DNA of 64,000 nt, taken from Candidatus Spongiisociaceae bacterium (GTDB lineage Bacteria > Actinomycetota > Acidimicrobiia > Spongiisociales > Spongiisociaceae). The position numbers and the translations under genes are program-made. Below the pieces are notes generated by a model that was given only the letters and a program-made list of their open reading frames with translations, was not told the origin of the DNA and ran no database searches. Below are positions 3,181-56,723 of the stretch, piece by piece (within the stretch, counting starts at the first letter, position 1; each line of letters begins with the position of its first letter). The stretch spans positions 1,696,001 through 1,760,000 of the forward strand of contig OZ241841.1 in NCBI GenBank assembly GCA_965202665.1. Reading direction: 5' to 3'.

Positions 3181-3573
3181 TCAAATGTTTGGTGTGGTGG
3201 CTTTGGATAGTTTTTTGTCTAGGGTGGCTAGTTGGGCTTGGCGGCGGTGGGCGGTTTCCAGGTAGGCGGCGTCGTAGCCGCTTAGGTTGTGTTGGCGGGC
3301 CAAGGCTACTGTGTTGGCGTCATCTTGATCGTGGTCGGTGATTAGGGGGAGGGAGCGGAGGCGGTTGAGGTAGGCCTCGGCGGAACCTGCCTCGATGCGG
3401 CCTTTCCGTTCGGCTCCCACAAGCACGTTGCGTATCTCGTGCCAGAACAGGTCTGGGACTATGGCGGGTTCGCTATATATTCGGGCTATCACCTCGTCTG
3501 CTTCGGCGGTGCCCGGTCGGTCGCGGAAGCACCAGGTGGCTGCTATTGACGCATCAGCAACTATGGTCGTCAG
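3181..3573 (-). CDS. vapC: VapC-family PIN-domain ribonuclease toxin
   Basis: Frame extends upstream of the called ORF to give TIVADASIAATWCF (PIN strand 1 Asp), then WHEIRNVL, LSGYDAAYL and LATLD. Probable CTG start overlapping the Res stop (CTGA), with GAGGGA RBS. Confidence 0.85.
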   Translation of the reverse strand: MTTIVADASIAATWCFRDRPGTAEADEVIARIYSEPAIVPDLFWHEIRNVLVGAERKGRIEAGSAEAYLNRLRSLPLITDHDQDDANTVALARQHNLSGYDAAYLETAHRRQAQLATLDKKLSKATTPNI

Positions 3574-8292: not shown

Positions 8293-11150
8293 CCTGTTTC
8301 TCCGATGATGCCGTCCGTACGGCACAGCCTCCGCAGGTCGCATTCTTGGCAGATATCCGCTTCGGGCGGGGCGGACACTGCGAACTCGCCCGCCTGGATG
8401 CGCCGCACGGTGGCGTCGAAATGGCGGCCGGCCTCCTCTACCCGCTCCGGTCTGTATGGTAGCGCCATCAGCGCATCCTGCTTGCGTTGCTCCGAAGTCC
8501 AGTAGAGCAACAGTCGATCCACCCGCTTGCCCCGCCGTTGCTCCAAGATGTGGGCGTAGGTGCAGAGTTGCCGTTCGTAGGCCTCTATCAGATTCGGGTT
8601 GTCTTTGGGGCGGGGCGAAGTCTTGAAATCCAGCAGCTCCAATTTGCCGTCCCCGCCCATCAACAGGTCCACCTTGCCGGACAGGATGTAGTCGTCCTTC
8701 TCCAAAGACACATCCACCTCGGTTTCGATGATGCGGCCCATCTCGTCTTGGTTTTGCCGGAAATAGTTCATCACCTGTCGGAACGCGGCCTCTTTGACCA
8801 CCCCGCTGATGGGCCGCCGGTCGGACAGGCTCAGGACTCGGAAGTTGTCTTCGAACAGGTCGCTGATGCGGTTCTCGTCGAGGGAGTCCAGTTGGCCGTC
8901 CATGGCGAAGCGGTGGATGCCCTCGATGGACTGGTGGACGAGCTGGCCGAAAAAGAAGACCGCCGACCGGGACGGGGTGAAGTCGTATTCCCGGAAGAAC
9001 TGATACTGGCGCGGGCAGGTTTCGTAGACTTTGAGGTCGCCGGTGAAACTGTAGGTTTTTTTGACGGGCGTCCGTTCATGCGAGGCAAAACGCTGGGCGG
9101 CCAGCTTATCCTTCTCCGCGTACGGCCACTGGGGGAGGCCCTCCCAGATGGCGGCGAAGTGTTTCTTGGGCGTTTTGTGGGCGGTTAGGACCAGCACATT
9201 CTGCGCTCTGGAAAAGGCCACGTAGTGTTGGCGCATCCGGTCAAAATTGGTTATGCGGTCTTCGGGTTCAAAAGGCGGACGGTGATAGAACGGGGCCAAG
9301 TTGCGGTCAATTTGCTTGCCGGTGGGAATCTGCGCCGACAGGGAGCCGACCGCCACCACCGGAAACTCCAAGCCCTTGGACTGATGGATGGTCATCACTT
9401 GCACGTAACCTTTCGGGAACGGCTGATCCGGGTCCTCGTATTCGTTGATGCCTCCCGAATGAAGCAGGCGCAGGAAACTGTTGAAAAAACTGCGGGGCAG
9501 AGACTCCCGGTTGTCGTAGGTGATAACCGGGTAGCCGTAGAAAACCTGAAAAGCGTTGAGAAGCTGGGAGAAGATGGCCAGGTTGCAGGCCGTGTTTTCA
9601 TCTTTGGCCGCGCTCCGGAACGGTTCCAAGGCGAGCAGGCGGTAGAAGTAGTCGGTAGGACGCAGGTCGAGGGTCTGCCTTTTCTCCAGGGCGGCGATTT
9701 CGTCCGTCCACCGGCGGAGGGCCCGGGCGAGCGGGCTGGACTTTTCGAACTGCTGACAGAGTTGAAGGATGGCCTCATCCGCATATCGGGCCAGTTTTTT
9801 GAGCGCCCATCCCGAAACCGGATCCCGTTGGTCGCCGTACCAGCCGAGCAGGATTGCGTAACAGGCCACCAGGTTGCGGATGGCGGGAATATCAAAGAAG
9901 CCCCGGGCGCGGGGGCAGAAAGCGGGGATGCCCCTGGCTTGCAAGGCTTCCAGATAGTGACCGCTGTGCTTCTCGCGGACGCTGTGCAACAGGAGGGCCA
10001 CCTGGCTGTAATCCTCAATCACCTGATTTTTTTTCAGAAACTCCACCAGATCGGCGAATCGTTCAGCCTCGTCCTGGACGCCGGTTCCCCATATGCTGAT
10101 GACGGCCGGGTAGTTGGAGCGGTCTCCGTTCGGGTTGGCGACGATGGTTTTGTCGTAACGGAAGGAGTGGCCGGCCGAGTTGGACCAGTCCGCCGAGGAC
10201 ATCCAATCGTCGTAGCGTTCCACTATGGCGGGATGCGAGCGGTAGTTGGAAGTCAACTTGATGACCCGGCAGTCGGACACCCGCTGGGGGAACTCCAAGA
10301 TGTTGCGCACCGTGGCCCCCCGGAAGCGGTATATGCTCTGGTCCTCGTCACCCACCACGCACAGGTTCTGGTCGGGCCCCGCCAGTTTGAGGAGCAACTG
10401 TTCCTGGATGAAGTTGGTGTCCTGGTATTCGTCCACTAGCAGGTAGCGGAGATGGGGGGAAACCGAGTCGGCGGCGGCTGGGTCGTTCAGCAGGTCGTAG
10501 AAATGTCGTTGCAGGTGGGCGAAATCGACGCGGTTTTTGTTCAACAGGGCCTTTTGATAACTGAGGTAGGCGGAGCCGATGGCCCTGATGAAAGAGTCGT
10601 CCGAGTTCGTCATCAGGTTCGGATCGACCAGTTCTTCGGTTATTTTGTCAAAATACCCTCTCGCCCTTTCGATGGCCGTCCAGCGGGTTGTCCAACGGGT
10701 CAGATAGCGGCCGTCCTCATCTTTTTCTCCGATGATGTCGTCGAAATGTTCGAAGATGAACAACAGTTGGGTCAGCTCGTCCAAGGTTTGGTAGCCGTGC
10801 CCGAGGTTCGTCCGGTGGCGGTGACGGGTCAGGGCCCGGTTGCAAAATCCGTGGATGGTGGAGATGGTCAGGTCGGACAGGTCCTCCTTGTAACCCAGCT
10901 GGCTGGCGTAGGCGGCCAGACGGTCCCGCATTTCGTAGGCGGCTTTCTCGGTGAAAGTGCACAACGCCATCTCTTTCGGTTCCGCCTTCTTCAACAGCAA
11001 CAGGTTCAAGGCCCGCAGGACGATGCTGTAGGTTTTGCCGGAGCCGGGGCCGGCTATCACCAGGAGCGGGCCGTCCAGATGGCCGATGACCTCCTGCTGG
11101 CTGGGGTTTAGTTGCAGGTTGTGCTCCACAATTGCGGGAGCGATGGTCAT
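8289..11150 (-). CDS. UvrD/Rep SF1 helicase fused to C-terminal PD-(D/E)xK nuclease with 4-Cys (Fe-S staple) pattern
   Basis: AGPGSGKT, VDEYQD, GDEDQSIYRFRGA, TIHQSKGLEF, YVAFSRA; then YETCPRQY, GKVDLL, LDFKTS, YERQL and CQECDLRRLC. Confidence 0.92.
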   Translation of the reverse strand: MTIAPAIVEHNLQLNPSQQEVIGHLDGPLLVIAGPGSGKTYSIVLRALNLLLLKKAEPKEMALCTFTEKAAYEMRDRLAAYASQLGYKEDLSDLTISTIHGFCNRALTRHRHRTNLGHGYQTLDELTQLLFIFEHFDDIIGEKDEDGRYLTRWTTRWTAIERARGYFDKITEELVDPNLMTNSDDSFIRAIGSAYLSYQKALLNKNRVDFAHLQRHFYDLLNDPAAADSVSPHLRYLLVDEYQDTNFIQEQLLLKLAGPDQNLCVVGDEDQSIYRFRGATVRNILEFPQRVSDCRVIKLTSNYRSHPAIVERYDDWMSSADWSNSAGHSFRYDKTIVANPNGDRSNYPAVISIWGTGVQDEAERFADLVEFLKKNQVIEDYSQVALLLHSVREKHSGHYLEALQARGIPAFCPRARGFFDIPAIRNLVACYAILLGWYGDQRDPVSGWALKKLARYADEAILQLCQQFEKSSPLARALRRWTDEIAALEKRQTLDLRPTDYFYRLLALEPFRSAAKDENTACNLAIFSQLLNAFQVFYGYPVITYDNRESLPRSFFNSFLRLLHSGGINEYEDPDQPFPKGYVQVMTIHQSKGLEFPVVAVGSLSAQIPTGKQIDRNLAPFYHRPPFEPEDRITNFDRMRQHYVAFSRAQNVLVLTAHKTPKKHFAAIWEGLPQWPYAEKDKLAAQRFASHERTPVKKTYSFTGDLKVYETCPRQYQFFREYDFTPSRSAVFFFGQLVHQSIEGIHRFAMDGQLDSLDENRISDLFEDNFRVLSLSDRRPISGVVKEAAFRQVMNYFRQNQDEMGRIIETEVDVSLEKDDYILSGKVDLLMGGDGKLELLDFKTSPRPKDNPNLIEAYERQLCTYAHILEQRRGKRVDRLLLYWTSEQRKQDALMALPYRPERVEEAGRHFDATVRRIQAGEFAVSAPPEADICQECDLRRLCRTDGIIGETG

Positions 11151-28835: not shown

Positions 28836-31211
28836 ATGGATAATAAGAACCTGGCCACCAGATTGATGAGAGCTGATTCAGCGGATGTGGTAGTGAACAT
28901 TCTTGAAGAGGCGGGCTATTGGCACGAGGACCGCTATTGGCGGTATCTCGGTGATATGCCAACTAACTTTTCCTCTATTGGCAATCAGCAAAGTGATCCG
29001 GTAGCCTCTTTGGTCGAGAAGATAATCAACGGAGTTGACGCTCGGCTGATGAATGCCTGCTTAGAACAAAACATTGACCCTGAGTCCAAAGAGGCTCCCA
29101 ACACTATGCAAGAGGCAGTGTCTCGTTTCTTTGAGGGAGGATCGGATGCTCGGGTGGATGGTAAGATTAGACACTGGAGTGCCGATCAGCTTCGCCAAGA
29201 GAGCTCTTTTTTGACTGTCGCTGCAACCGGTCATCGACCAGGCAAAGGTGACCCATGTATTACTATTGCGGACCAAGGAGAGGGGCAAACACCCGACGAG
29301 TTTCCAAATACGTTTTTGTCATTACAAAAAGGCAATAAAAACAAAATTCAATTTGTTCAAGGTAAATACAATATGGGCGGTACAGGAGCATTGAACTTTT
29401 GTGCTGGCCCGCATCGTTTGCAACTAATCATCTCGCGGCGAAACCCTGCTCTTCTAAAGGATAGTTTTTCTGAACGAGACAGCCAGTGGGGTTTTACGGT
29501 GGTGAGACGTGAAAAGCCTGTAGGTAATGAAAAGAATTCTACTTTCACATACCTTGCTCCTATTGGCTCTTCGTATCGTAAAGGGGAAGTTCTTACCTTT
29601 GTATCGGATGCTTGGCCATTATTTCCTGATGGTGAGGATGCGTATTGTATTCCTAGCAAGTTTGGAACACTCGTAAAACTATATGAGTATGACTTACCAA
29701 ACAAAAGTAATATAGTATCATCAGAGACGGGGCTGTTTCGTAGGCTTGACTTGGGAATGCCTGAGATAGTTCTTCCAGTAAAAGTTTTTGAATGTCGGCC
29801 AGGTTATGGAGGTACAGCAGAAGGTGTAATAGATGGACTAATTGCAAGATTAGAAGAAGATAGATCTAAAACTCTTGAACCAGGCTTTCCTCAGGTTAGC
29901 GAGATTAGCGATAACCAGAAACTCCCGATACGCATATATGCTTTCAAACATGGTCAAGGAAAACATTATCGTACATCAGATACGGGTATTGTTTTTACGC
30001 TAAATGGCCAAACGCATGCTTCACTACCGCGTAGCTTTTATAGTCGCAAATCAGTCGGTATGAGCTATTTGGCTGATTCGCTACTACTGATAGCTGATTG
30101 TTCTGAACTACAACGTGATAAGCAAGAAGAATTATTCATGGCTAGTAGGGATAGGATGAGGAAGTCCGCTTTTTCTAAACAATTGGAAGATGATTTGGTA
30201 TCGCTTTTGAATGATAATCCTGCTTTGAAAGAATTGAGAAATCGACGTAGAAAAGAGCAAATTGGGGAACAATTGAGTGATGATAAACCCTTACAAGAAA
30301 TATTGAGCAATTTAGTTAGCAAAGATCCGAATTTGGCGAAATTGCTGATGACAGGGAATAGAATAAGTGCTCCGTTTGTTCCTGGGCCAATCCCGAACGG
30401 TGATTCGGAGTTTGAGGGGAGAAAATTTCCTACCTTTTTCAAATTTAAAAAAATCGATTACGGAGAAATATTTATAAGAGAAGGTTCTTTAGGAAGTAAG
30501 ATTCGGTTTGATTTTATTACCGATGCTGTTAACGATTATTTTGGGCGAGATATAGACCCAGGTCAGTTAACTGTGACGATCGATGATTTTGAACCTAAGT
30601 ATTTAAGATTACCTCTAAGGGATGGTAGTTGCAGTGTCAATCTTGTGATACCTGAAAGATATGTAGAGGGTGATATATTTGAGGTTCAGGTACAGGTTAC
30701 AGATCAATCCCGCATTGAACCTTTTATTAATATTGCTAGAGTGACGCTAAGAAAGGGTCGTAAATCACCACCGGGTCCTCGACCAAATCCCCCTAAGTTC
30801 GCTGATAAACTTTCGTTGCCGAAAATAATAAAGGTGAAGGAAGATAAATGGGCGAATCATGATTTCAATGCAGAGTCTGGTTTGGTTGTAAAAAGTACCA
30901 AATCGGAGAGTCGCGAATCTCGCCTGAGTTACGATTTTTATGTAAATGTGGATAATATATATTTAAAATCAGAGCAGAAATCTTCTAAAATTGATTCGAG
31001 CTTGCTCGAAGCAAGATTTGTATATGGGCTTGTTCTTTTTGCTATGGCTATTTTAAGAGATCCTAAAGATTTCAAATCTCTCTATCAGGGTGAAGAACCT
31101 GATGATTTGGAGGGGATAGTTAAGCATGTGAGCAAGAGTTTGGCGCGAATAATACTTCCGGTATTTAATTTGATTTTTGATCTTTCTGACTCTGATTATT
31201 TTGATGAGTAA
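28836..31211 (+). CDS. GHKL (MORC/MutL/Hsp90-like) ATPase domain protein, AT-rich
   Basis: EKIINGVDA, IADQGEGQ, GKYNMGGTG and GTLV Bergerat-fold motifs; S5-like region with SRDR; unknown C-terminal half. Confidence 0.8.
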   Translation: MDNKNLATRLMRADSADVVVNILEEAGYWHEDRYWRYLGDMPTNFSSIGNQQSDPVASLVEKIINGVDARLMNACLEQNIDPESKEAPNTMQEAVSRFFEGGSDARVDGKIRHWSADQLRQESSFLTVAATGHRPGKGDPCITIADQGEGQTPDEFPNTFLSLQKGNKNKIQFVQGKYNMGGTGALNFCAGPHRLQLIISRRNPALLKDSFSERDSQWGFTVVRREKPVGNEKNSTFTYLAPIGSSYRKGEVLTFVSDAWPLFPDGEDAYCIPSKFGTLVKLYEYDLPNKSNIVSSETGLFRRLDLGMPEIVLPVKVFECRPGYGGTAEGVIDGLIARLEEDRSKTLEPGFPQVSEISDNQKLPIRIYAFKHGQGKHYRTSDTGIVFTLNGQTHASLPRSFYSRKSVGMSYLADSLLLIADCSELQRDKQEELFMASRDRMRKSAFSKQLEDDLVSLLNDNPALKELRNRRRKEQIGEQLSDDKPLQEILSNLVSKDPNLAKLLMTGNRISAPFVPGPIPNGDSEFEGRKFPTFFKFKKIDYGEIFIREGSLGSKIRFDFITDAVNDYFGRDIDPGQLTVTIDDFEPKYLRLPLRDGSCSVNLVIPERYVEGDIFEVQVQVTDQSRIEPFINIARVTLRKGRKSPPGPRPNPPKFADKLSLPKIIKVKEDKWANHDFNAESGLVVKSTKSESRESRLSYDFYVNVDNIYLKSEQKSSKIDSSLLEARFVYGLVLFAMAILRDPKDFKSLYQGEEPDDLEGIVKHVSKSLARIILPVFNLIFDLSDSDYFDE

Positions 31212-40506: not shown

Positions 40507-41567
40507 CCGGACGTTTGGCCAAAGTTGCGTCCACCGCGGCCCTGGTGGCGGCCGCTTTCGCCATCACCTCCCTGATTTTGTGGATCAGCGGATACAGCGT
40601 GGCCGAGGTTTTCTCCGGAACCGTCCAAGGGGCGATCACCGCCAAAGGGGCGGTGGCTTCCACCGTCCGCTGGACCATCCCCCTGTTGCTGATCGCCTGG
40701 GGGGTGACCATCGGGTTCCGGGCCGGTTTTTTCAACATCGGCGGGCAGGGCCAGTTCTACGTGGGGGCTTGCGCCTCCCTGGCGGTGGCTTTGGGGTGGC
40801 GGACCGGGCCCGCCTGGTTGGTGATCATCGTCGGAACGGCGGCGGCGGTGACGGCGGGGGCCGCCTGGTCGCTGATCCCCGGTTGGCTGCGGGTGCGGTT
40901 CGGGGCCGACGAGGTGCTGACCACGCTGATGATGAGTTTCATCGGTTCCCTGGTGCTGCAGTATTTGACTTCCGGTCCGATGCGCAACCCGCAGGGCACC
41001 GGTCAGACGGCGGCCAGCGAACGGATACCCGACGCCTTTCGCCTGACCGGCAGCTCCGGCGTGTCGCTGGTTTTGCTGGCGATCGTCGTCTTGACCGGGG
41101 CGGCGGTGTGGGTTTTGTTGGAGCGCACCCGGTTCGGGCTGTCCGTGGATTTGGCGGGCCGCAATCCGGTGATGGCCCGCTGGCAGGGAATCAACGTCCG
41201 CCGGGTGGGTTTGGCTTCTTTCGGTTTGGCGGGGGCGCTGGCCGGTTTGGCGGGGGCGATGGAACTGTTCGGGCCGGCGGCCCGTCTGATAACCGGTTTT
41301 TCACCGACGGTGGGGTTCAACGCGGTGGTGGTGGCTTTGGTGGGTTTGCTGAGCGTGCCCGGGGTGGCCCTGTCCGCCCTGTTCTTCGGCGGCTTGCAGT
41401 CGGCGATCCTGTTTCTGCCGATAGTGACCGATGTCCCGCCCCCCGCCCTGGTGGTCCTGAACGGGATGGTGGCTTTGCTGGTAACCATCCGGTTCCGCGC
41501 CCGCCGTCGCCGCGTCGCATCCGGCCCCGCCGTTGCGGAGGGGGCCGACGGGGAGGCCGGCGGCTGA
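40503..41567 (+). CDS. Nucleoside-type ABC permease 1
   Basis: FNIGGQGQF, DEVLTTLMM, RTRFG. Confidence 0.88.
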   Translation: MTGRLAKVASTAALVAAAFAITSLILWISGYSVAEVFSGTVQGAITAKGAVASTVRWTIPLLLIAWGVTIGFRAGFFNIGGQGQFYVGACASLAVALGWRTGPAWLVIIVGTAAAVTAGAAWSLIPGWLRVRFGADEVLTTLMMSFIGSLVLQYLTSGPMRNPQGTGQTAASERIPDAFRLTGSSGVSLVLLAIVVLTGAAVWVLLERTRFGLSVDLAGRNPVMARWQGINVRRVGLASFGLAGALAGLAGAMELFGPAARLITGFSPTVGFNAVVVALVGLLSVPGVALSALFFGGLQSAILFLPIVTDVPPPALVVLNGMVALLVTIRFRARRRRVASGPAVAEGADGEAGG

Positions 41568-42484
41568 TGGAACAGGTCCTGGCCACCACCCTGCGGGCCG
41601 CCGCCCCGTTGATTTTGGCGGCCTTGGCGGGGGTGTTCGCCTGGAGGGCGGGCGTCTTCCACCTGGGCTTGGAGGGCCTGATGATCACCGGGGCTTTCTC
41701 GGCGGCGGCGGTGGGGCACGCCACCGGTTCGGTGTGGCTGGGAATTTTGTCGGGGGTGGCGGCCTGCTCGGTCCTGTCGTTTCTGTTCTGGTGGGTTATC
41801 GGCCCCCTGCGGGCCAATATGATCATCGCCGGGTTGGGGCTGACTTCCCTCGGTTTGGGGGGAACCGCCTACGCCCTGACCGCCGTTTTCGACACGCGGG
41901 GCACGATTTTCACCGAGGTGACCCTGCCCCGGCCGGTGCGGGGAGTGAACGAGGGGCTGGGGGTGATAGTTTCCGAATCGTCCATTTTGGTGTGGCTGGC
42001 TCCGCTGTTCGTGTTGGCCTCCTGGGTGGTCCTGCGGCGCACCCGGTTCGGACTGCGCCTGACGGCGGTGGGGGAGTATCCGTTCGCGGCCCGTTCGGTG
42101 GGGGTGGACCCGTCCCGGATGCGGCTGTGGGCGTTGCTGATAGCGGGCGGGCTGAGCGCCCTGGCCGGCGCCGAACTGTCGGTGGGGGCGTTGCGCAATT
42201 TCACGGAGAACATGACCGCCGGGCGGGGTTTCATAGCCTTCGTGGCCGTCATTTTCGGGGCCTGGCATCCGATCGGGGCGGCGGCCGCCGCCTTGTTTTT
42301 CGGTTTGGCGGACGCCATAGGGGCCCAGTCGCAGATCAACATCACCGAGTCGGTCCCCCGGGAGTTCGTGCTGATGATCCCCTACCTGCTGACCATCGTC
42401 GCCGTGTGGGTGGGCGGAATGCTGCGCCGCCGCCAAACGGAAGCTTCCGCCGGCTACGCCGAACTAAGAGAACCCGACGATTAG
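41567..42484 (+). CDS. Nucleoside-type ABC permease 2
   Basis: LGLEGLM, FGLRLTAVGE, AGRGFIA, FGAWHP. Confidence 0.88.
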   Translation: MEQVLATTLRAAAPLILAALAGVFAWRAGVFHLGLEGLMITGAFSAAAVGHATGSVWLGILSGVAACSVLSFLFWWVIGPLRANMIIAGLGLTSLGLGGTAYALTAVFDTRGTIFTEVTLPRPVRGVNEGLGVIVSESSILVWLAPLFVLASWVVLRRTRFGLRLTAVGEYPFAARSVGVDPSRMRLWALLIAGGLSALAGAELSVGALRNFTENMTAGRGFIAFVAVIFGAWHPIGAAAAALFFGLADAIGAQSQINITESVPREFVLMIPYLLTIVAVWVGGMLRRRQTEASAGYAELREPDD

Positions 42485-42518
42485 CCGCCCGCCTGGAGAG
42501 GGACGGGAGGGGCGGCTG

Positions 42519-43337
42519 TCAGGACAGGAAGTCCAGGATGACGGCGATGGATTTCTCCGCCTGTTCCACGTAGTGGCCGTGGCCGCTCCCTTCGAAGACG
42601 GCCAAGCGTCCGTTGGGCAGATGTTCCGCCACGTAACGGGCGCAGGCCCCGGGCATCGGGGCGTCCATGGGCGTCAAATTGTCCTCCGACCCCACCATCA
42701 CCAGGGTGGGGCAGGCGATGTCCGCCAACAGGTGGGTCACGTCGGTGTCGATCATCGCCTGGCATCCGTCTATGAACACTTCGGTGGAGGCGTTGCGGGC
42801 CACCACTTCCATCGTGGACAGCAACAGGGCTTCGCCCCCGTCCGGCCCGTCCAGGTAGGAGCGGGAGAAGGCCTTGGTCAGCAGTTCTTCGGCCATTTCC
42901 CGGGAGGCCGCCCCGTAGGCCCGGGCGATGTTCTGCCAGGTGCGGAAAGCCAGTTTGCCCATCCGGTCGCATCGGGCCACCGCCCCCGCCCCCAACAGCA
43001 ACCGCTCCACCCGTTGCGGATATTTGGCGGCGAAGGCGAGGGCGATGAAACTCCCCATGGATCCGCCGTGAATATGGGCCCGCTCGACATCCAAGGCTTC
43101 CATCAGCCCGGCCAGGTCATCGCACCACCCTTCAAACGTATAGGTCTGTTCAGGCCGGTCGCTCTTCCCGTAACCCCGGTGGTCGTAGTCCAACACCCGG
43201 TAACGCTCAGAAAGGCCGGGGGTGATAGTGGCGTAGCCTTCATGGGCGCTGACCGCCCCCCCGATCTGCACCACCGTCTCCCCTTCGCCCTCAAACCGAT
43301 ACCAAAGGTCGGCCCCATTAACTTCCACTTTAGGCAT
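42519..43337 (-). CDS. Alpha/beta hydrolase
   Basis: YDHRGYG, GGSMG nucleophile elbow, GSED, GSGH. Confidence 0.9.
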   Translation of the reverse strand: MPKVEVNGADLWYRFEGEGETVVQIGGAVSAHEGYATITPGLSERYRVLDYDHRGYGKSDRPEQTYTFEGWCDDLAGLMEALDVERAHIHGGSMGSFIALAFAAKYPQRVERLLLGAGAVARCDRMGKLAFRTWQNIARAYGAASREMAEELLTKAFSRSYLDGPDGGEALLLSTMEVVARNASTEVFIDGCQAMIDTDVTHLLADIACPTLVMVGSEDNLTPMDAPMPGACARYVAEHLPNGRLAVFEGSGHGHYVEQAEKSIAVILDFLS

Positions 43338-43387
43338 ATTCCGCTCCTCGCTCCAGGCCCAAAACAATATGCTAGGCTCCGGGTAGT

Positions 43388-46300
43388 ATGAATGCTAAGG
43401 CTAACAGCAACCGGAACCACTCCTTCAAAGTAGGTGATTTCGTGCGATTGAAGGCCACAGGCGAGGTGGGGGTGGTTGTTGAGCTTATAGGAGACGACTT
43501 TGTAAAGGTCCAGTTCGCTGACGGCGCGAAGGTGGTAAATGCGGATGCTTTAGAACCCGCAGATAAGTCTCCAGTCGGCCCGGTCGGGTTGCTAGAAGGA
43601 GGCACACTCTCCGATAGTCGAGCTTTTGGTTTACGACTTCAGGCTGCTTACCTCCGACACGCTTACCGATATGACCCTAAGTCTGGGCTGTCCAACGCCA
43701 GGGTGGAGCCCAAGCTACATCAAGTGTTCGCCGCCCATCGGGTAACCGGCAAGCTCTTTCCTCGGATGATACTAGCTGATGAAGTTGGTTTAGGGAAAAC
43801 TATAGAGGCTGGGCTCATTTTAAAAGAACTTCGGGCTCGCGAAGTCATTGATCGCGTTCTCGTGGTTTGCCCAGCCTCTTTGCAACGCCAGTGGCAATAT
43901 GAGATGGAAACCAAATTCAATGAAGAGTTCGAAATATATAATAAAACCGCAGTTGATTTTCTCGGTAAGGACGGCAGTAATCCTTGGATGAAACGAAAGG
44001 GTGCCATAGCCTCCTATGAATTTGCCATCAAGCCAAGGAATATGGAACAAATTGTGGAAGCCGACTGGGATTTGATTATTTTTGATGAAGCACACCGGGT
44101 TAGAAGAACACGCGTCGGGAACAAATATAGAGAAACCAAGGCATACAAGATGGCTAAACTTCTACAAGATCGAGACTTTGGCTTATTATTGCTTACCGCT
44201 ACTCCTATGCAATTACACCTATATGAGCTCTATTCCCTTATTGACTTGATTGATTCTAGCCTTCATATAGATTTTGCTGAATTTGAGGACAAGATGTTAG
44301 AAATACCTGATTTGAATGATGCGATGAAGGAACTACAAGAATGGCCGTCAGTTCATAAACATCAGAGGCTCAATGCCGTTGTACGTTGGGGTTTTAAAAT
44401 GGGCTACTTGAGAAAAAAATCTGTTACCGATATTTTGAACGATGATGACAAGCGGGAGAAATTAATTAACGACTTGGTCCAACGACATCCTGTGGCACAA
44501 GTTCTTATTCGCAATCGTAAGAGTACCATAGGTGGATTTAAAGGACGAATTGCCAATCGTATACCAGTAAAGTTAACAGATGAAGAATGGGAGTTGTATA
44601 ATGAAATATCAGAATATATTCGGCTAGGTTATAACCGGGCTAACAAAGAGAAGAAGAGGGCGATTGGATTTACTATGACAATATATCAAAAACTCTTGAC
44701 TAGTAGCTCGTACGCCCTCCGCGAAAGTTTCAGAAATCGGGTGACTAACCTAAAGAATCAAGATAACGTAAGGCAAAAGGAAGCAATTACAGAAAATGGA
44801 TTAAACGAATTACGTGAACTTGATGATATTTCTGAAGGATTAGATCATTTAGAACAGGACGACATAGATAATTCTGAACAGAAATCAGAAATACGGGAGC
44901 TAGAGGGATATATTGACCGCCTAAATCAGATAAGAGATTCGAAAGCGGACAAATTAATAAATGAAATAGTATTGCCAATTCTGGATAAAAATTCCAGTGA
45001 GAAGATATTGATATTCACAGGTTTCGTCAATACACAGAAATTCCTGCAGAGAGTTCTTCAATCGATTGGCTATGAGGTCACCATTTTCAATGGTCAGATG
45101 GACTTATCCGAGAAGGAGAAGTCGGTCCAGCGATTCAGACAACAAGCGCAGATTATGATTACAACAGAAGCAGGTGGCGAAGGTCGTAACTTTCAGTTTG
45201 CGCATATTATGGTAAACTATGATCTGCCGTGGAATCCGATGAAGGTTGAACAGCGGATCGGTCGTCTTGATCGAATTGGCCAAACTCGTAAAGTTCAGAT
45301 ATACAATCTTTATAGTGAGAGTACACTAGAACAGCGAATTTTAGATGTATTGGAATATCGTATTCAACTCTTTACTCGGGCAGTAGGTTCATTGGATCCT
45401 ATACTTGGCGAAGTAGAACGAGATTTAGAAAGAATTATTTTCGAGCATATGGACAATCTAGATGAGTATATGGAGAAATTCGAAAAAGATCTTGCGGAAA
45501 GAATCAAAGAAGCAAGGGAAACCGAAAAGTTATTGGGTGACTTTATTTTGGATCGTACTAGCTTGAGACAAGACGAGGCAAATATACTATTAGAACGATC
45601 TACGCTGGCTAGTTTTGATGACCTGCACCGATTTATTGAGGAAGCACTAAACTATTATGGAGGAAGATTGAGTAAGCATAATAACGGAGGTGATTATTTA
45701 ACATTGTCACCCAATCTAAGACACGATATTCAGGCTGACAGTACCAATGTTCGTGGAGTATTTGATCCGAAGGAGGCACTGGAGTGGGAAGATTTAGATT
45801 TTTTCGCTTTCGGACACAAACATATTGACCGAATAGTAGACTATGTCTATAACCAAGATGCGAAGACGGGGGTCCGTTTTTTACCAGATGCCCCCCCAGG
45901 AGTTACGATAGAGATAATATATGAGTACGAAAGTCGAAGACCCCTTCATACAAAGGGTCAAAGAGGACCCTTTCATGCAAAAGGTCAAATGGTCCGACAT
46001 CATATAGGACAAGACTTGCAAATCCATAGTGAAATGATTACAACCATACCTGCTGTGGGTCAGGCCTGTAACAGCAAAGTAGATGTACCAGAGTGGTTAC
46101 CTAGTGCTTTGGAGATAAGCCAGCAGAGAGCTATCGAGGAATTGGAGCAGTTTCAAGAGAAGACATATAGGGAAGGATTACCAGAACGTAGAGGGATGGA
46201 AGAGCGTTACCGGCGGGTGTTTGCTCATCAGCGTAAACAGTTGAAAGCTAAGATAGAAAAAGCAAGGGCTTGGATAGATGAAAAAACACAAAGTGGCTCC

Positions 46301-46465
46301 GATGATGAAAAAAAGATTCTACCTGCCCAGCGAGCGAGGTTACGGCAAATGGAACAAGAACTTCAGAATCTAACCTCCGAGTTACAGCACAAAATTGAAG
46401 AATTGAATCGTCCGGCAGATATCATTCAGACGATTGTATCAGCAGGATTGGTAATGAGACAATGA
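43388..46465 (+). CDS. RapA/DrmD-like SNF2 helicase, AT-rich
   Basis: N-terminal Tudor/SH3-like segment; LADEVGLGKTIEAG, FDEAHR, LTATP, GGEGRNFQ, LPWNPMKVEQRIGRLDRIGQ; C-terminal coiled coil. Confidence 0.92.
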   Translation: MNAKANSNRNHSFKVGDFVRLKATGEVGVVVELIGDDFVKVQFADGAKVVNADALEPADKSPVGPVGLLEGGTLSDSRAFGLRLQAAYLRHAYRYDPKSGLSNARVEPKLHQVFAAHRVTGKLFPRMILADEVGLGKTIEAGLILKELRAREVIDRVLVVCPASLQRQWQYEMETKFNEEFEIYNKTAVDFLGKDGSNPWMKRKGAIASYEFAIKPRNMEQIVEADWDLIIFDEAHRVRRTRVGNKYRETKAYKMAKLLQDRDFGLLLLTATPMQLHLYELYSLIDLIDSSLHIDFAEFEDKMLEIPDLNDAMKELQEWPSVHKHQRLNAVVRWGFKMGYLRKKSVTDILNDDDKREKLINDLVQRHPVAQVLIRNRKSTIGGFKGRIANRIPVKLTDEEWELYNEISEYIRLGYNRANKEKKRAIGFTMTIYQKLLTSSSYALRESFRNRVTNLKNQDNVRQKEAITENGLNELRELDDISEGLDHLEQDDIDNSEQKSEIRELEGYIDRLNQIRDSKADKLINEIVLPILDKNSSEKILIFTGFVNTQKFLQRVLQSIGYEVTIFNGQMDLSEKEKSVQRFRQQAQIMITTEAGGEGRNFQFAHIMVNYDLPWNPMKVEQRIGRLDRIGQTRKVQIYNLYSESTLEQRILDVLEYRIQLFTRAVGSLDPILGEVERDLERIIFEHMDNLDEYMEKFEKDLAERIKEARETEKLLGDFILDRTSLRQDEANILLERSTLASFDDLHRFIEEALNYYGGRLSKHNNGGDYLTLSPNLRHDIQADSTNVRGVFDPKEALEWEDLDFFAFGHKHIDRIVDYVYNQDAKTGVRFLPDAPPGVTIEIIYEYESRRPLHTKGQRGPFHAKGQMVRHHIGQDLQIHSEMITTIPAVGQACNSKVDVPEWLPSALEISQQRAIEELEQFQEKTYREGLPERRGMEERYRRVFAHQRKQLKAKIEKARAWIDEKTQSGSDDEKKILPAQRARLRQMEQELQNLTSELQHKIEELNRPADIIQTIVSAGLVMRQ

Positions 46466-47817
46466 GAAACGTACTTGCCTGTGGTATTGACTTTGGAACA
46501 ACCAATAGCTCTGTATCGATCGCGTATGATAACGGCGATGTAGAGTTAGTTACTATTGACACTAGCACGCCCATGCCCCGTAGCTTGTCATCCATTGCAT
46601 ATATAGATCGTGAAGATGCTAAGCAAGCAGGACAAGAAGCTGTTAAACAGTTTATGATTACCGGACCTATTAGTACTTCTTGCGGTAATTGTGATTTAGT
46701 AGAGATAATCAAGTTTGGTGGTTTTGCACATTATGATACAGATTGTAAGCAACATCAGCCTGGGGGTAGGTGTCAGGACGCCCGTCTGGTTAGTGGAGTG
46801 AAAAGCTTACTAGCCCCCACTGAGAATGGTACTACCCATGCTTGGGCCAGGTATTTTGAATTGGAGGATTTTGTTGCGATCATAATAAAGGAGCTTAAGA
46901 AACGGGTTGATGATATAGCAGGTGCCAATATACGTAGAGTTGTTTTAGGATATCCAGTAACTTTCGTGGGTGCTGAAGGCTCAGATTATGAAAATCTACA
47001 GGAAGGGGCAGAGGGCAGACTACAACGAGCGGCAGAAAAGGCGGGGTTCACTGATATAGAATTATTTCCGGAACCAGCTGCTGTGTTGCTGGATCAATAC
47101 TTGAAGGATGGATACATACTAGCGGTAGATTTTGGTGGTGGAACTTATGATGTGGCAGTCTTAGAGAACCAGGGAAGCGAGCCGGAGATCGTAGCACTTC
47201 AGGGTGCTACGATAGGTGGAGAAAAATTCGACGGTTTGTTGTTTGATAAAAAGGTGGCTGACGCTATAGGTCTAAACCAGAAACCCAAAGGCAAAACTTT
47301 GCCCAAATGGATAAAGATTAATATGCGAACCTTGGCTGGCATCCCTATTTTACTCAAAAATCCGTTTCTTCTGTCCACCTTATTGAATTTTGAAAGTCTA
47401 GGAGCCAATATTGATGCCATTCGTGAGATTTTGTTTGGTGGTCATGCGTATAGTTTCTATACTGAAGTGGAGAGAGCTAAAATAGAATTATCCGAAAGCC
47501 AAGTAGCTCAGATTCGCTATCATGTGCAAGGCAGGATTGATGTATCAGCCACGGTATATCGGACTGATTTCGATCGTTGGATAAGTTCATATCTTGACAG
47601 GGTTGATACCGCTACAATAACCGCCGTAAATGAGGCTGGTGTAGCACCTCAAGATGTCCATACCGTCTTACGAGCAGGAGGTTCATCAAAAATACCGCAA
47701 TTTATTGACAGACTAGAATCTATATTTCCGAATGCGGAAATCAGGGAACGGGATGCGTTTACATCCGTGGCCTATGGCCTTGGTGTACATGCATTGGAGG
47801 TATGGGGTAATGTCTGA
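46462..47817 (+). CDS. Hsp70-family (YegD-like, nucleotide-binding domain only) ATPase with 4-Cys insertion
   Basis: GIDFGTTNS, EPAA, VDFGGGTYD, AGGSSKIP, FTSVAYGL; insertion CGNC...C...C; ATGA overlap with the helicase. Confidence 0.88.
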   Translation: MRNVLACGIDFGTTNSSVSIAYDNGDVELVTIDTSTPMPRSLSSIAYIDREDAKQAGQEAVKQFMITGPISTSCGNCDLVEIIKFGGFAHYDTDCKQHQPGGRCQDARLVSGVKSLLAPTENGTTHAWARYFELEDFVAIIIKELKKRVDDIAGANIRRVVLGYPVTFVGAEGSDYENLQEGAEGRLQRAAEKAGFTDIELFPEPAAVLLDQYLKDGYILAVDFGGGTYDVAVLENQGSEPEIVALQGATIGGEKFDGLLFDKKVADAIGLNQKPKGKTLPKWIKINMRTLAGIPILLKNPFLLSTLLNFESLGANIDAIREILFGGHAYSFYTEVERAKIELSESQVAQIRYHVQGRIDVSATVYRTDFDRWISSYLDRVDTATITAVNEAGVAPQDVHTVLRAGGSSKIPQFIDRLESIFPNAEIRERDAFTSVAYGLGVHALEVWGNV

Positions 47818-48562
47818 TGACAAGCAAAAGCCTCGTGAGAGGATAAGGATTCCTACGCCCAAGGAGTTAGACGAGTCCGCTACCGGTGGACAGTCGGAAC
47901 AGGATGAGCCTCAGGAGCAAAAGGGCGGTCGTGCCCGGTTCCGGCGGATCCGGATGCGGATGAGGGGAGGTGTGGGGCGGAACAAGAAAGTGCTAAAGGC
48001 TCCTCGACCTGATGTAGAGACAGTAGGGGAAGGTCCTCCGGATGGAAAAGACCCAGGAGATGTCGAGCCAGGTTTTATCGTCCCCTTATCTGAGCGGGTA
48101 ATAGGGGATGAAGGTGGTCAGATACAAGAAGAGGCTGTTCTTCCGAGGCAGATACCGGGACGGATCCAGCCGTTCAAGGACGAGTTTAGCGAAGAGGATA
48201 AACAAGAGGATTCTTCTAGATCGCGTGTCCGTGCTGTCAAATTCTCACCTAAGATTAAGAAAAGGAAAGAGGAACCGGTTCCTGATGATGATGCAAAGAG
48301 GCCCAAGAGTCGTGAGGAGATAGCTCGGGATTTAGCTAGTCGTAATGCTCAAGAAAATGGTCATGATATAGGTGACTTTTTCAAGCAGGTTCGCCCAGAT
48401 CGCACTAAGCACTTTACAGCTACATGTAGAAAATGTGGTTTGGATATCATAGCTGTGGTGGAGCTTGATGATTATCAGGTAAAAGGACTTCCAGGAGTTA
48501 TCGGGAAGGCTAAAAACAAAAGATGTACAGAAGAAGTTAAGAATAGAGGAGTCGGTCTTTAG
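47810..48562 (+). CDS. Hypothetical charged/disordered protein with C-terminal putative Zn finger
   Basis: GGAGG RBS, overlaps the Hsp70 stop; GHDIG...ATCRKCG...KRC. Confidence 0.7.
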   Translation: MSDDKQKPRERIRIPTPKELDESATGGQSEQDEPQEQKGGRARFRRIRMRMRGGVGRNKKVLKAPRPDVETVGEGPPDGKDPGDVEPGFIVPLSERVIGDEGGQIQEEAVLPRQIPGRIQPFKDEFSEEDKQEDSSRSRVRAVKFSPKIKKRKEEPVPDDDAKRPKSREEIARDLASRNAQENGHDIGDFFKQVRPDRTKHFTATCRKCGLDIIAVVELDDYQVKGLPGVIGKAKNKRCTEEVKNRGVGL

Positions 48563-48593
48563 GCGATTCTTTGCGGACGTTTCGGGGGTTGGG

Positions 48594-49385
48594 TTATTCT
48601 TCGGGTACGTCGTAGAGTTGGGCGGCTAGGCCTCCGTCTACTACCAGGTTGACGCCGGATACGTAGCGGGCGTCGTCGGAGGCCAGATACAGGAACGCGC
48701 GGGCTATGTCGTCGGGGGCGGCTAGGCGGTTGGCGGGTACGGCCGGGAAACCCTGTTTGCGCCATTTGTCCATCAGTTCTTCGCCCACCAGGTCCACTGA
48801 CTGCTGGGTGTCGGCCGGGCCGGGGGAGACGCAGTTGCATCGAATGCCGTAGGGGGCGCATTCCACAGCGATGGCTTTGGCCAGGGCCGTCAGCCCCGCT
48901 TTGGACACGCAGTAGGGGGTGAAGTTGCGCCCATGGCCTAAAGCGGCGATGGAGGCGGTGAACAGGATGACCCCGCCCCCGGTGTCTTTCATCGCCCGGG
49001 CGGCCCGTTGCGCCAGCACGAAGTAGGCGTCCAGGTTGACCGCCAGCACCCTCCTCCACCCTTCCTGGCTGACTTCCAGAAAAGGGTCGTCCACCCAGGC
49101 GGCGGCGTTGGAAATGAGCGCATCCAGCCGGGGATGAACTTCCAAGGCCCGTTCCATCGCCGAGGCGCAGGCCCCCATGTTCTCCAAGTCGGCGAGGATG
49201 GGGACGGGGGCGGCTCCCCGCTCCGCGACCGACTCGGCCGCTTTTTCCAAGCGGTCGGGGGCCCGGTCCACCAGATAGAGGTTGGCCGCCCCTTCTTCGG
49301 CGAACAATTGGGCGGTGCGCAACCCGATACCGCTTCCCGCCCCGGTTACCAGAACGTTTTTACCTGTGAACCGTCGCCCGCTCAT
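48594..49385 (-). CDS. SDR family oxidoreductase
   Basis: TGAGSGIG, SNAA, YCVSK, VVDGG. Confidence 0.92.
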   Translation of the reverse strand: MSGRRFTGKNVLVTGAGSGIGLRTAQLFAEEGAANLYLVDRAPDRLEKAAESVAERGAAPVPILADLENMGACASAMERALEVHPRLDALISNAAAWVDDPFLEVSQEGWRRVLAVNLDAYFVLAQRAARAMKDTGGGVILFTASIAALGHGRNFTPYCVSKAGLTALAKAIAVECAPYGIRCNCVSPGPADTQQSVDLVGEELMDKWRKQGFPAVPANRLAAPDDIARAFLYLASDDARYVSGVNLVVDGGLAAQLYDVPEE

Positions 49386-49447
49386 CCGTCTTCTCCTATC
49401 CGGTTGCTGAGCAGATGCCCCCAGATTAGGCGACGGCGCGCCGGTTG

Positions 49448-49708
49448 TTATCCGCTCAGGACGGGAATTTCCACTTCGATGGCTTTGGGGAGTATCCGCC
49501 CGCCCGGTTCCAGCGGCGGCCCGCTGTAGCGTTGGGGCGGCGGTATGGGTTGGTTGTGTTCGGTCATGGCTTCCACGTAGAGGGCGGCGGCGTCCCCCAA
49601 GTCTTCCGTAACGTCGGCGATGGTAGCGCCGACGCCGTAGGCGGCCAGACCCACCACCCACCCGGACCAGCCTTCCGGCGTGGGCTCAATCACCGCATCG
49701 TATTTCAT
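49448..49708 (-). CDS. HicB-like antitoxin domain protein (orphan)
   Basis: Y.AVIE....GWSGWV..L...GVGATI......L.DA..LY pattern; GGAGG RBS. Confidence 0.7.
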   Translation of the reverse strand: MKYDAVIEPTPEGWSGWVVGLAAYGVGATIADVTEDLGDAAALYVEAMTEHNQPIPPPQRYSGPPLEPGGRILPKAIEVEIPVLSG

Positions 49709-49760
49709 AGAAATCCTCCGTTCCCTTCCCGGCTAGGCAACCCAACCATCCCAACCAAGT

Positions 49761-50465
49761 TCACACGACGCGCAGGGGCGGCGACGGTTGGGAAAAGTCG
49801 GGCGGGGGGGAGCCTATGGCTACGAACATCCGCTCGGCGGCGAACACGCCCACCCCGACGTCTTTTCCTTTAACCCGCACGGTGAGGGCCCCCTGCGGGT
49901 CTTTCTGCACCAACTCCACCAGGGCATGCGGCCGCAGGTTGCTTTCGTCCAGGTAGCGCATCATTTCCGCATCCAGTTCCAACTCTTCCGAAATGCGCTC
50001 CAAAGGGTAAACGTCCCCCGGTTCCATTTCCGCCATCGGTTTCATCCGGGGCGGTTTGTATCCGGCTCCGGGGATGGGGTTGCCGTGCGGACAGGTTTTC
50101 GGGTCGTCCATCACCGCCCACATGGCGGCCTCCACATCGTCGGAGATCATCGTCTCCCAAACTTCCGCCTCCTCATGCACTTTCGCCCAGGGCAGGCGCA
50201 GCACCTCCGACAGGAAACGTTCCGCCAGGCGGTGGCGGCGCACGATCACCGCCGCCATATGGCGCCCTTCCGGGGTGAGCCGTATTTCATCCCCGATCGC
50301 CACCAGGCCTTCCTGTTCCATCCGGTGCACCATTTCCGACACGCTGGCCCGGCTCACCCCCAGCCAGTCGGAGATGCGGGCCTGGATGACGGGAATGCCC
50401 GCTTCCTCAATCTCCCAGACGGCCTCGGCGTATTCCCGGTAACGAACGGGGTAGGTGGCGTCCAT
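49761..50465 (-). CDS. DtxR/IdeR-family metal-dependent repressor with FeoA domain
   Basis: LGVSRASVSEMV, RRHRLAERFL, VHEEAE.WE, CPHGNPIPG. Confidence 0.92.
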   Translation of the reverse strand: MDATYPVRYREYAEAVWEIEEAGIPVIQARISDWLGVSRASVSEMVHRMEQEGLVAIGDEIRLTPEGRHMAAVIVRRHRLAERFLSEVLRLPWAKVHEEAEVWETMISDDVEAAMWAVMDDPKTCPHGNPIPGAGYKPPRMKPMAEMEPGDVYPLERISEELELDAEMMRYLDESNLRPHALVELVQKDPQGALTVRVKGKDVGVGVFAAERMFVAIGSPPPDFSQPSPPLRVV

Positions 50466-50530
50466 GGGCCCATAGTAGCCGCCCCCGCCCCCCGACCGCC
50501 CCCAAAAGCCCGACGATAGGCCGCAGCCGA

Positions 50531-53740: not shown

Positions 53741-55153
53741 ATGATTCCGGTTTTGACCGCCGGGCAGTCCCGCAGCCAAGATTCCGCGACGGCGGCGCCC
53801 CCGGAGATGTTGGTGGAACGGGCCGGGCGGGCGGCGGCTTTGGCGGCGGTGCGGCTGGGGGCCGGTTACGGGACGCGGACCGCGGTTCTGGCCGGGCCGG
53901 GCAACAACGGGGCGGACGGATACGTCGCGGCCGGGGTTTTGGCCCGCCGGGGGCTGTGGGTGGATGTTTACCCGTTTTTGGAACCGCGGAGCGCGGCGGC
54001 GGCACAGGCCGGGGAGCGGGCGGCGGCCGCCGGGGCGAAGTTTCGCCCCTGGGGGGTTTTCCGCCCCGCCGATACGGTGGTGGACGCCCTGTTCGGGGGC
54101 GGTTTCCGGGGGGAGGCGCCCGACCTGTCTTTCTGGCGGGCGGGGGGAGGGCGGCGGTTGGCGGTGGACGCCCCGTCCGGTTTGGATGTTTCCACCGGTT
54201 GCGCGGCGCCGGGGACTTTGCCCGCCGATGCGACCGTCACGTTCGGCGGCCTGCGGGTGGGGCATCTGATCGGGGACGGCCCCGGCCTGTGCGGGGAGGT
54301 TGCGGTGGCCGACATCGGGTTGGCGGAGGCGGAGCCGGAGTTTTGGCTGTGCGAGGAGGGGGACGCGCCTTTGCCGGCGCGGGAGCGGACGGCCCACAAG
54401 TGGTCGGCCGGTTCGGTGCTGGTGGTGGGCGGTTCGCGGGGTTTGGACGGGGCGGCCACTTTGACCGCTAGGGCCGCGTTGCGGGCCGGGGCGGGGGCGG
54501 TGATGATCGCCTGCCCGCCCGCGGTGGAGGAGAAGGTGCGGGCCCCGGAGATTATGACCCGGGCGGTGGGGCCGGGCCCTTTCCTGGGGGAGGGGTGCCT
54601 GCCGGAGGTTCTGGAGTTAGCGTCCCGGTTCGACGTGCTGGCCCTGGGTCCCGGCTTGGGTTTGGATCCGTCGGCGGCCGGTTTCGCGGCCGGGCTGCTA
54701 AAGGAATGGGAGGGCCCGTTGCTGGTGGACGCCGACGGTTTGAACGTTTTGGACGGTCCGGCTTCGCTGCGGCGGACGGCCCCGACCGTCATCACCCCCC
54801 ACGCCGGGGAGTTTCTAAGGCTGACCGGGACGGAGGCTGATTACCGGGCGGCGGCCGCTTTGGCGGAGAGCGCCGGGGCGGTGGTCCTGCTGAAAGGGTC
54901 CCCCACTTTCGTGATGGGGGAGGGCCGGTGGGCGGTGGCGGAAGGCGGCCCCGAGTTGGCCACTATCGGATCCGGCGACATCCTGGCCGGAATGATCGCC
55001 GCTTTCTGGGCGGCTGGCCAAGACGCCGAAACCGCCGCCCGCTCCGCCGCCTTCTGGCACGCCCGTTCCGCCGCCGTTTTAGTCCAAACCCAAACCCCCA
55101 CCGCCGACTCCCTGGTGAACCACCTACCCAAAGCTACCCGCCGCCCCACCTAG
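53741..55153 (+). CDS. nnr: Bifunctional NAD(P)HX epimerase/dehydratase
   Basis: GPGNNGADG, DALFG, VDAPSG, GPGLG, DADGLN, TPHAGE, LATIGSGDILAG. Confidence 0.92.
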   Translation: MIPVLTAGQSRSQDSATAAPPEMLVERAGRAAALAAVRLGAGYGTRTAVLAGPGNNGADGYVAAGVLARRGLWVDVYPFLEPRSAAAAQAGERAAAAGAKFRPWGVFRPADTVVDALFGGGFRGEAPDLSFWRAGGGRRLAVDAPSGLDVSTGCAAPGTLPADATVTFGGLRVGHLIGDGPGLCGEVAVADIGLAEAEPEFWLCEEGDAPLPARERTAHKWSAGSVLVVGGSRGLDGAATLTARAALRAGAGAVMIACPPAVEEKVRAPEIMTRAVGPGPFLGEGCLPEVLELASRFDVLALGPGLGLDPSAAGFAAGLLKEWEGPLLVDADGLNVLDGPASLRRTAPTVITPHAGEFLRLTGTEADYRAAAALAESAGAVVLLKGSPTFVMGEGRWAVAEGGPELATIGSGDILAGMIAAFWAAGQDAETAARSAAFWHARSAAVLVQTQTPTADSLVNHLPKATRRPT

Positions 55154-56246: not shown

Positions 56247-56723
56247 ATGATGGCAATGATGGGCAGAACGGTTTCCTGCTTGTTGTCCAGTGTTATGTTC
56301 TGGACTGCTCTGTCTGTTCCTGGTGGACAGGACGCTGATGATCTGCCTGCCTGCGGACACCCAGAATGTTATCCAACATTTTGTCAGGTGTTTAACGATC
56401 CTGATAATGTCCATGATAAGTTAAAAATGTTGTCTAATGAACATAAAATACAGATTATCAGTTTCCTGATAAGTGTCCGTAAATATAGGGATAAACTAAA
56501 ACGCTATCCAATACAAAACTTGGAAAATATTCTGTATGAAATATTACGACAGTCAGTTGACGCAAATAGCATATCTGCTTATATCAGACAACAGAATATT
56601 GGAAATGACAAAGTAACAAAAATACTGTGGTATACTATAGACTTACCAGGTGTCAGGTTGTCTATAATAGATAACCCAACGGCTGAACAACTGATAATAT
56701 TAGATATAGATTTGGATAATTAA
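56247..56723 (+). CDS. AT-rich hypothetical protein (start 56247 or 56427)
   Basis: 158 aa ORF; 3' half strongly AT-rich. Confidence 0.5.
   Translation: MMAMMGRTVSCLLSSVMFWTALSVPGGQDADDLPACGHPECYPTFCQVFNDPDNVHDKLKMLSNEHKIQIISFLISVRKYRDKLKRYPIQNLENILYEILRQSVDANSISAYIRQQNIGNDKVTKILWYTIDLPGVRLSIIDNPTAEQLIILDIDLDN

Follow-up and report, generated by a model that had tools for sequence, protein, structure and literature searches.

A 64,000-nucleotide stretch of contig OZ241841.1 from a Candidatus Spongiisociaceae bacterium (the window; the 2.77-Mb genome to which it belongs is called G000) carries a cassette of three genes, which encode a SNF2-family ATPase, an Hsp70 that consists of the nucleotide-binding domain alone, and a small protein ending in a zinc-finger-like domain. 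The cassette is a real, horizontally inserted mobile unit, and within the literature and libraries searched it is undescribed. Its genes are inherited together and coupled by overlaps, the second and third are fused in some relatives, and both ATPase sites are intact. We suggest, with a probability of about one half, that it works on its own against phage, with the Hsp70 and the finger as a joint sensing switch and the SNF2 motor as the effector; that it serves defence of some kind seems to us fairly probable. The cassette, its junctions and its flanks are as follows.

43388..46465, + strand: SNF2-family ATPase gene, 1025 amino acids (open reading frame, profile and alignment evidence)
46462..47817, + strand: Hsp70 nucleotide-binding-domain gene, 451 amino acids (open reading frame, profile and structure-model evidence)
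47810..48562, + strand: third gene, 250 amino acids, with PTPxEL, RxGVG, a linker and a His-Cys-Cys-Cys domain
48302..48538, + strand: zinc-finger-like domain of the third protein (predicted fold and homologue alignment)
43338..43387, no strand: left junction, 50 bp, its start resembling the empty-site spacer of a same-genus genome, G001
48563..48593, no strand: right junction, 31 bp, reaching the dehydrogenase stop codon (sequence comparison)
42519..43337, - strand: host flank outside the cassette, alpha/beta hydrolase (annotation of flanks)
48594..49385, - strand: host flank outside the cassette, short-chain dehydrogenase, adjoining the hydrolase in G001

The mobility of the cassette is seen in G001, where the hydrolase and dehydrogenase genes are adjacent, about 20 bp apart, which indicates that the cassette entered the spacer of an operon on the opposite strand. 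G001 has a copy of its own 13 kb away, with 55–56% identity. Another site, at aroC, is occupied in G013 and G004 and empty in G009 and G017. Thirteen genome copies, one of them in a Nocardioides genome (G1062), occupy at least 8 insertion sites (L024 duplicates L020 and was counted once, and the unpublished genome G032 was tallied solely as a non-carrier), and a metagenome contig, L104, bears all three genes. Within the family, 9 of 29 genomes have the Hsp70, and the identical nine have a top-tier SNF2 protein; across the order, a top-tier SNF2 protein (at least 1188 bits, the next tier lying at 720) is found in 12 of 401 genomes, and the Hsp70 and a homologue of the third gene follow it at 12 of 12 loci, which represent six or more sites besides that of the window. 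Three of 401 genomes in a class sample and one of 401 in a phylum sample were positive, counting the window's own, and neither 400 genomes sampled from the phylum nor 250 others of the genus of G1062 yielded the cassette, these large searches having scored two to four candidates per genome. No family member was present among 71 viral loci, or in viral contigs searched by SNF2 words, or among the plasmid matches listed, the best of which had 28–35% identity. The earlier note on this DNA, made from the letters alone, had named three findings that would tell against its proposal of a defence or stress system: genes that do not co-occur elsewhere, a core and syntenic position among relatives, and a match to a named system. 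The triplet does recur, its distribution in the family is patchy, and no searched library or paper names it.

The genes are also tightly coupled. The SNF2 and Hsp70 genes overlap by 4 nucleotides (ATGA) in the window and at 13 of 13 further loci examined, and the Hsp70 and third genes of the window overlap by 8. Distances among SNF2 proteins and among their Hsp70 partners, compared over 21 pairs, are correlated (Spearman 0.85, with 0 of 5000 shuffles as high), which shows joint inheritance and not contact. With equal contig size as a proxy for linkage, which gives a lower bound, 32 of 143 family Hsp70 clusters (32 of 85 on contigs of at least 6 kb) share a size with one of 119 SNF2 clusters; the chance expectation is 0.46, and 0 of 40 generic YegD-like proteins do so. 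In G002 each ATPase gene has acquired one stop, two in total, and the third gene is open.

Base composition sets the cassette apart from its surroundings. The guanine-plus-cytosine (GC) content of the three genes in order is 42.3, 43.7 and 49.3% (39, 35 and 43% at third codon positions); that of the flanks is 64–66% (79–81%), and the genome-wide value is 64.1%. Low-GC stretches are common in G000, with 87 listed, so low GC alone is not rare. A public contig, possibly the window's own source, is identical over 41500–50500, and the left junction is also spanned by a 281-base piece, likewise identical, that comes from another study. The third gene most likely starts, judging by the sequence, at the ATG at 47810; the longer start at 47732 given by the open reading frame finder is improbable because GGAGG sits 7 nucleotides 5' of the ATG at 47810 and most homologues start at a matching MSDDK or MTD. 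What the earlier note had described from the sequence is borne out in each part: three overlapping, co-oriented, low-GC genes between two catabolic genes; an Hsp70 that stops at its ATPase domain and bears a CGNC-x17-C-x8-C insert, found as C74-G-N-C77-x17-C95-x8-C104; and a third protein with an H...CxxC...C tail, formed by H185, C206, C209 and C239. An 8-bp sequence at both ends, CTTTAGGC, was considered as a target-site repeat and rejected, its occurrence being within chance and G001 differing there. Promoter and terminator scans of the cassette gave chance-level results, and no RNA holder is listed for it.

The Hsp70 ends 12 residues past the equivalent of DnaK G374 and has no substrate-binding domain of the kind found in Hsp70/DnaK chaperones. 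Its structure model has a predicted local distance difference test (pLDDT) score of 91.7, and its top Foldseek matches are all Hsp70 or DnaK. The catalytic residues D10, T13, K114, E204, D223 and T228 are intact; by alignment the protein retains D8, T11, T12, E171, D194, G197, T199, E267, K270 and G342 of E. coli DnaK, and K114 aligns with the catalytic lysine, K69, of the DnaK that G000 itself encodes, the E. coli alignment placing DnaK K70 against the insert. Among 137 relatives, which are the high-scoring block of the searches less three rows without the insert, two fragments, one 799-residue row and P0075, the ATPase positions are 91–100% conserved and the insert cysteines C74, C77, C95 and C104 are 99–100% conserved. 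None of 40 generic YegD-like matches has a CxxC. DnaK D148, R151, K155 and R167 have roles in domain coupling and DnaJ contact; in the window protein they are replaced by G170, E184, Q188 and E200, and across the 137 relatives the position of R167 is E, V or A. A 58-row tree places the cassette family on one branch (support 100), separate from the generic YegD-like proteins. P0325, at 799 amino acids, apparently comprises two family Hsp70 units in tandem and may be an assembly artefact.

Homologues of the third protein share an N-terminal PTPxEL, a basic RxGVG, a linker of low complexity that varies, and a C-terminal domain of 75 residues, present in one to three copies, in which G-H and CxxC are invariant and the last cysteine nearly so. 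They are few, 14 among 1.84 billion representatives, and mostly strongly basic, with net charge up to +49. The C-terminal domain is predicted to bind zinc, and its predicted fold is a helix with a small beta-sheet (mean pLDDT 89.8). Neither Pfam, PADLOC, NCBIfam nor PHROGs holds a match to the third protein; for the finger, the best of the PDB sequences is Pcf11 (E 0.36), the best Foldseek matches to its fold (E 0.2 in PDB, 0.04 in BFVD) are not significant, and its Atlas matches, below 0.9, give no family. Five database proteins join it to the Hsp70: P0015, P0016, P0017, P0034 and P0035 are Hsp70 domains with the third protein fused behind them, and in P0011 and P0013 the Hsp70 is followed by only the start of the third protein. 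The window's third protein matches the tail of P0016 with 48% identity over 240 columns (E 8e-59). The point of fusion is where DnaK bears its substrate-binding domain, and of the three fusions placed in the tree two cluster and one lies in another sub-branch. Two further ideas about this protein were considered. PTPxEL stands where a vestige of DnaK's linker, DVTPLSL, might be expected (about 24 residues after G374 in P0015, versus 21), and is too short a motif to be more than a lead; a membrane-anchoring amphipathic helix is strong in many homologues and not in the window's protein (moment 0.57, with 56% of shuffles as high), and is not claimed.

By its sequence, the SNF2 protein appears to have a layout of the BrxHII/DrmD/RapA type, in which a single small N-terminal domain, SH3/Tudor-like, precedes the two ATPase lobes and a RapA_C-like region with a long helical hairpin. 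Its Pfam matches are SNF2, Helicase_C and, weakly, an SH3-like domain at residues 15–43. The motifs GLGKT, DEAH and QRIGRLDR are invariant across 97 aligned relatives, and no PD-(D/E)xK motif was seen among the conserved columns. K137 is the Walker A lysine of the window's protein, and E234 the glutamate of its DEAH motif. The best PADLOC match is to BrxHI/HII (E 3e-108), with further matches to DrmD and HmaA, and NCBIfam gives RapA, DrmD and DpdE, all of them under the cut-offs: the protein scores 303 bits for the DrmD family NF038317 (cut-off 610) and 352 bits for the RapA equivalog (cut-off 576), and it likewise falls short for Zorya I ZorD, at 57 bits (cut-off 1500). The alignment with RapA begins at residue 65 of the query and residue 111 of RapA; with some 50 fewer N-terminal residues, the protein has room for one Tudor domain and not for RapA's tandem pair. 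By sequence comparison, its nearest relatives among those tested are DrmD-like genes, some of them beside DISARM drmA/drmB. One DrmD-like gene matches it at 33% identity over the full length with 475 bits, E. coli RapA with 151+103 bits. A 19-row quick tree puts ten cassette-type SNF2 proteins on one branch (support 99–100), with four DrmD-like genes from family genomes as its sister. Three of the five second-tier DrmD-like genes stand beside a large helicase, which in the one scanned is DrmA, and in G009 a DrmB gene comes next; the remaining two are solitary low-GC genes, and Hsp70 adjoins none of the five. In G004 two solitary low-GC DrmD-like SNF2 genes (L297 4964-8191 and 11185-14421), each partnerless, lie 3 kb apart. 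The SNF2 homologues P0236 (at its N terminus), P0238 and P0241 have a PadR-type helix-turn-helix, and P0241 is paired with a family Hsp70 through equal contig size.

The company that the cassette keeps is partly that of defence genes. Of the 24 other low-GC islets of at least 2.5 kb in G000 (27 low-GC stretches, merged into 21 regions and three at the window), 19 have a PADLOC match at E≤1e-15; these matches are to single genes and not to called systems, and two of the 19 islets rest on one weak match each. Restriction-modification genes of types I, IIG and III are among the matches, as are Dnd/Pbe and Hma-like ones. Defence neighbours, picked by eye, are found at 4 of the 13 genome copies: the copy in G001 adjoins a methylase and a type III restriction-modification system, that in G268 an HmaA-like helicase and an NYN protein, that in G1062 an McrB-like AAA protein and McrC, and that in G013 lies near a type III Mod gene, across two host genes. 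In G954 and G1010 the neighbours were read and not scanned, and in G004 the only neighbour of this sort is a toxin-antitoxin-type pair. The earlier note's candidacy for defence holds in part, favoured by the matches in 19 of the islets and by DrmD-like kin and weakened by the small share of copies with defence neighbours; its idea that the cassette could sense or remodel complexes of phage nucleoprotein or RNA polymerase remains a conjecture.

How might such a system work? The cassette is likely a variant of SNF2-centred defence cassettes, and we offer an order of steps that is tentative. The third protein would replace the substrate-binding domain that the Hsp70 lacks, the two forming one unit, and its fast-changing, sometimes repeated zinc finger would recognize a protein or nucleic acid of the invader. 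The Hsp70 domain may be a nucleotide-dependent latch that is independent of DnaJ, since the DnaK residues R151, K155, D148 and R167 are not kept, and this latch would control the SNF2 motor. The motor would then move along DNA and strip protein complexes from it, cutting no DNA, and its action would stall phage transcription or replication, or else transcription of the host. The broken copy in G002 was counted as fitting genes of fast turnover. Eukaryotic SWI/SNF-family remodellers pair with actin-related proteins, and by analogy both they and the cassette join a SNF2 motor to an actin-fold nucleotide-binding protein. It is a quite unlikely extension of this analogy that the Hsp70-derived actin-fold ATPase directly binds and gates the SNF2 motor and the zinc finger is a swappable target sensor, in other words that the cassette provides nuclease-free immunity as an independent bacterial parallel to the eukaryotic SNF2/actin-related-protein module. 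If the anti-phage reading is correct, a three-gene unit that has two intact ATPases but no domain to cut or kill with would set apart the SNF2 motor's own immune role, a question that also concerns DrmD and BrxHII, and would supply the first concrete job for an Hsp70 reduced to its nucleotide-binding domain. New with the cassette are, besides, an Hsp70 insert of four cysteines and a small predicted metal-binding domain unmatched in Pfam, PHROGs, PDB and BFVD, and its length of 5.2 kb and evident catalytic residues make it readily testable.

In the SNF2-containing defence systems known to us, the motor is accompanied by methylases, nucleases or membrane proteins. Class I DISARM comprises drmA, drmB, drmC and a methylase; the cassette shares with it the SNF2 core, through relatives that include genes beside DrmA- and DrmB-like genes, but has none of these four components and has the Hsp70 and finger as partners instead. 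In Zorya I, ZorD goes with the membrane proteins ZorA and ZorB; genes 2 and 3 of the cassette have no PADLOC match and hence none to ZorA or ZorB. The type 3 BREX helicase BrxHII and the DUF499 BREX-related (Hma-like) helicases are the best PADLOC match of the SNF2 protein. In the main text of PMC12839542, BrxHII comprises a single Tudor domain, a SNF2 core, a nuclease-like domain that is inactive and, at the C terminus, a coiled-coil domain containing two long helices; RapA shares this layout but has two Tudor domains; the matches of the window's protein fit the BrxHII-like, single-Tudor description, at the level of sequence alone. That main text does not mention Hsp70 or DnaK, and the window's island lacks the BrxC/DUF499 ATPase, methylase and PglZ of BREX, which are no constant feature of the 12 other copies either. 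E. coli YegD resembles the cassette Hsp70 in being a nucleotide-binding domain alone and in having lost R151, K155 and R167, but identity between the two is 25%, the CxxC insert is missing from YegD, the cassette family stands on its separate, fully supported branch, and the score for the YegD family PRK11678 is 120 bits (cut-off 331); the available text of PMC13580251 describes YegD as such a domain and states no function. An Hsp70-like ATPase has also been recruited to the predicted defence system CoCoNuT, as CnuD/CnuCD, which according to the available text of PMC11090510 has both nucleotide-binding and substrate-binding domains, degenerate ATPase motifs and McrB/McrC partners. The cassette Hsp70 differs in its intact catalytic site and in its constant partner, SNF2; there is no McrB-like GTPase or McrC in the window, and only the G1062 copy lies beside McrB-like/McrC genes. 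We found no paper that describes SNF2 with an Hsp70 of the nucleotide-binding domain alone (supplements, with their large tables of candidate systems, and subscription papers were outside the scope of the search), and Hsp70 is absent from the available text of 10.1101/2025.09.15.676423.

Several observations weigh against a stand-alone anti-phage system. Nine of the 13 copies, the window's included, have no recognized defence neighbour, and library searches found no nuclease, methylase, toxin or membrane domain in the three proteins. The closest solved structure to the SNF2 protein is that of E. coli RapA (E 2e-67), and the branch that joins the cassette proteins to their DrmD-like sister has support of 93, unstarred, in a tree with long branches. 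We considered the tip of the SNF2 hairpin as a J-domain-like arm specific for Hsp70 and rejected it: DrmD-like genes that lack an Hsp70 have a similar tip too, and a tip conserved without this partner is no sign of Hsp70 binding. The fusions of genes 2 and 3 are single-member clusters of predicted proteins, and frame errors where the genes overlap may partly account for them. The Nocardioides copy has neither the cysteine insert nor a recognizable zinc finger, and the third gene of G004 is cut down to little beyond the finger. Finally, a subclade of solo four-cysteine Hsp70 genes (L105 3986-5302, L136 and L106), of host-like GC, has neither SNF2 nor third gene, which indicates that the Hsp70 can persist without the motor.

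Some of these points would suit other explanations. RapA provides the best NCBIfam match of the SNF2 protein as well as the best in the PDB, and the resemblance of the C-terminal part to RapA_C, the PadR-type helix-turn-helix on 3 of 120 SNF2 homologues and the position of most copies among metabolic genes would all suit a RapA-like transcription aid, in which the motor frees stalled or drug-bound RNA polymerase and the Hsp70 and finger sense stress or a small molecule. We regard this as unlikely. The protein scores well below the RapA cut-off, its shorter N terminus fits one Tudor domain and not two (main text of PMC12839542), and it is closer to DrmD-like genes than to RapA; moreover, the gene belongs to a coupled operon that is patchy, low in GC and moves between sites, with one copy broken.

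The want of any effector domain in the cassette raises the thought that it is an accessory module, inactive alone, which plugs into restriction-modification, McrBC, Hma or DISARM systems. Four of the 13 copies adjoin systems of that kind, G000 encodes restriction-modification, Dnd/Pbe and Hma-like genes elsewhere, and the SNF2 relatives are subunits of larger systems (main text of PMC12839542). Yet no two of the four sites share a partner, and the majority of copies are inserted by themselves as a precise unit of three genes, which makes this account rather unlikely in our estimation. Very improbable is a selfish or addictive unit, or else neutral cargo, with a toxic, basic third protein that the two ATPases restrain. 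In its favour are the mobility of a cassette whose island has no mobility gene, the mostly strongly basic third proteins and the tight coupling of the genes; a simple toxin model would poorly tolerate the G002 copy, with stops in both ATPase genes and an open third gene, and the investment in ATPases is large. A stand-alone anti-phage system remains the reading that we prefer.

Other genes in and near these loci may merit attention. The window contains a low-GC type III restriction-modification pair at 3573-8343 on the - strand (Res of 947 and Mod of 530 amino acids) and, at 28836-31208 on the + strand, a solitary low-GC gene of 791 amino acids with a third-position GC of 0.34, a candidate defence gene for which neither Pfam nor PADLOC gave a match at the thresholds applied. 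Two other islets of G000, L310 969-3271 and L318 2535-7981, hold several genes without a PADLOC match, and the two in L310 also have no Pfam match. Convergent with the cassette of G013 is a pair encoding a small protein and a GHKL ATPase (L021 7522-8374), and one database member of the solo four-cysteine Hsp70 subclade is labelled Candidatus Dormibacteraceae. Just 5' of the cassette in G001 lies a gene of 561 amino acids (L016 4949-6631; GC 0.26) with no Pfam or PADLOC match. Low-GC cargo at the site that follows a 470-amino-acid gene (53741-55153), which by eye looks nnrE-like, is not the same in G000 (56247-56720, + strand) as in G001 (L016 4800-7150), and in G001 short fragments of the interior of that 470-amino-acid gene recur between the inserted genes, where they may mark the arrival of inserts.

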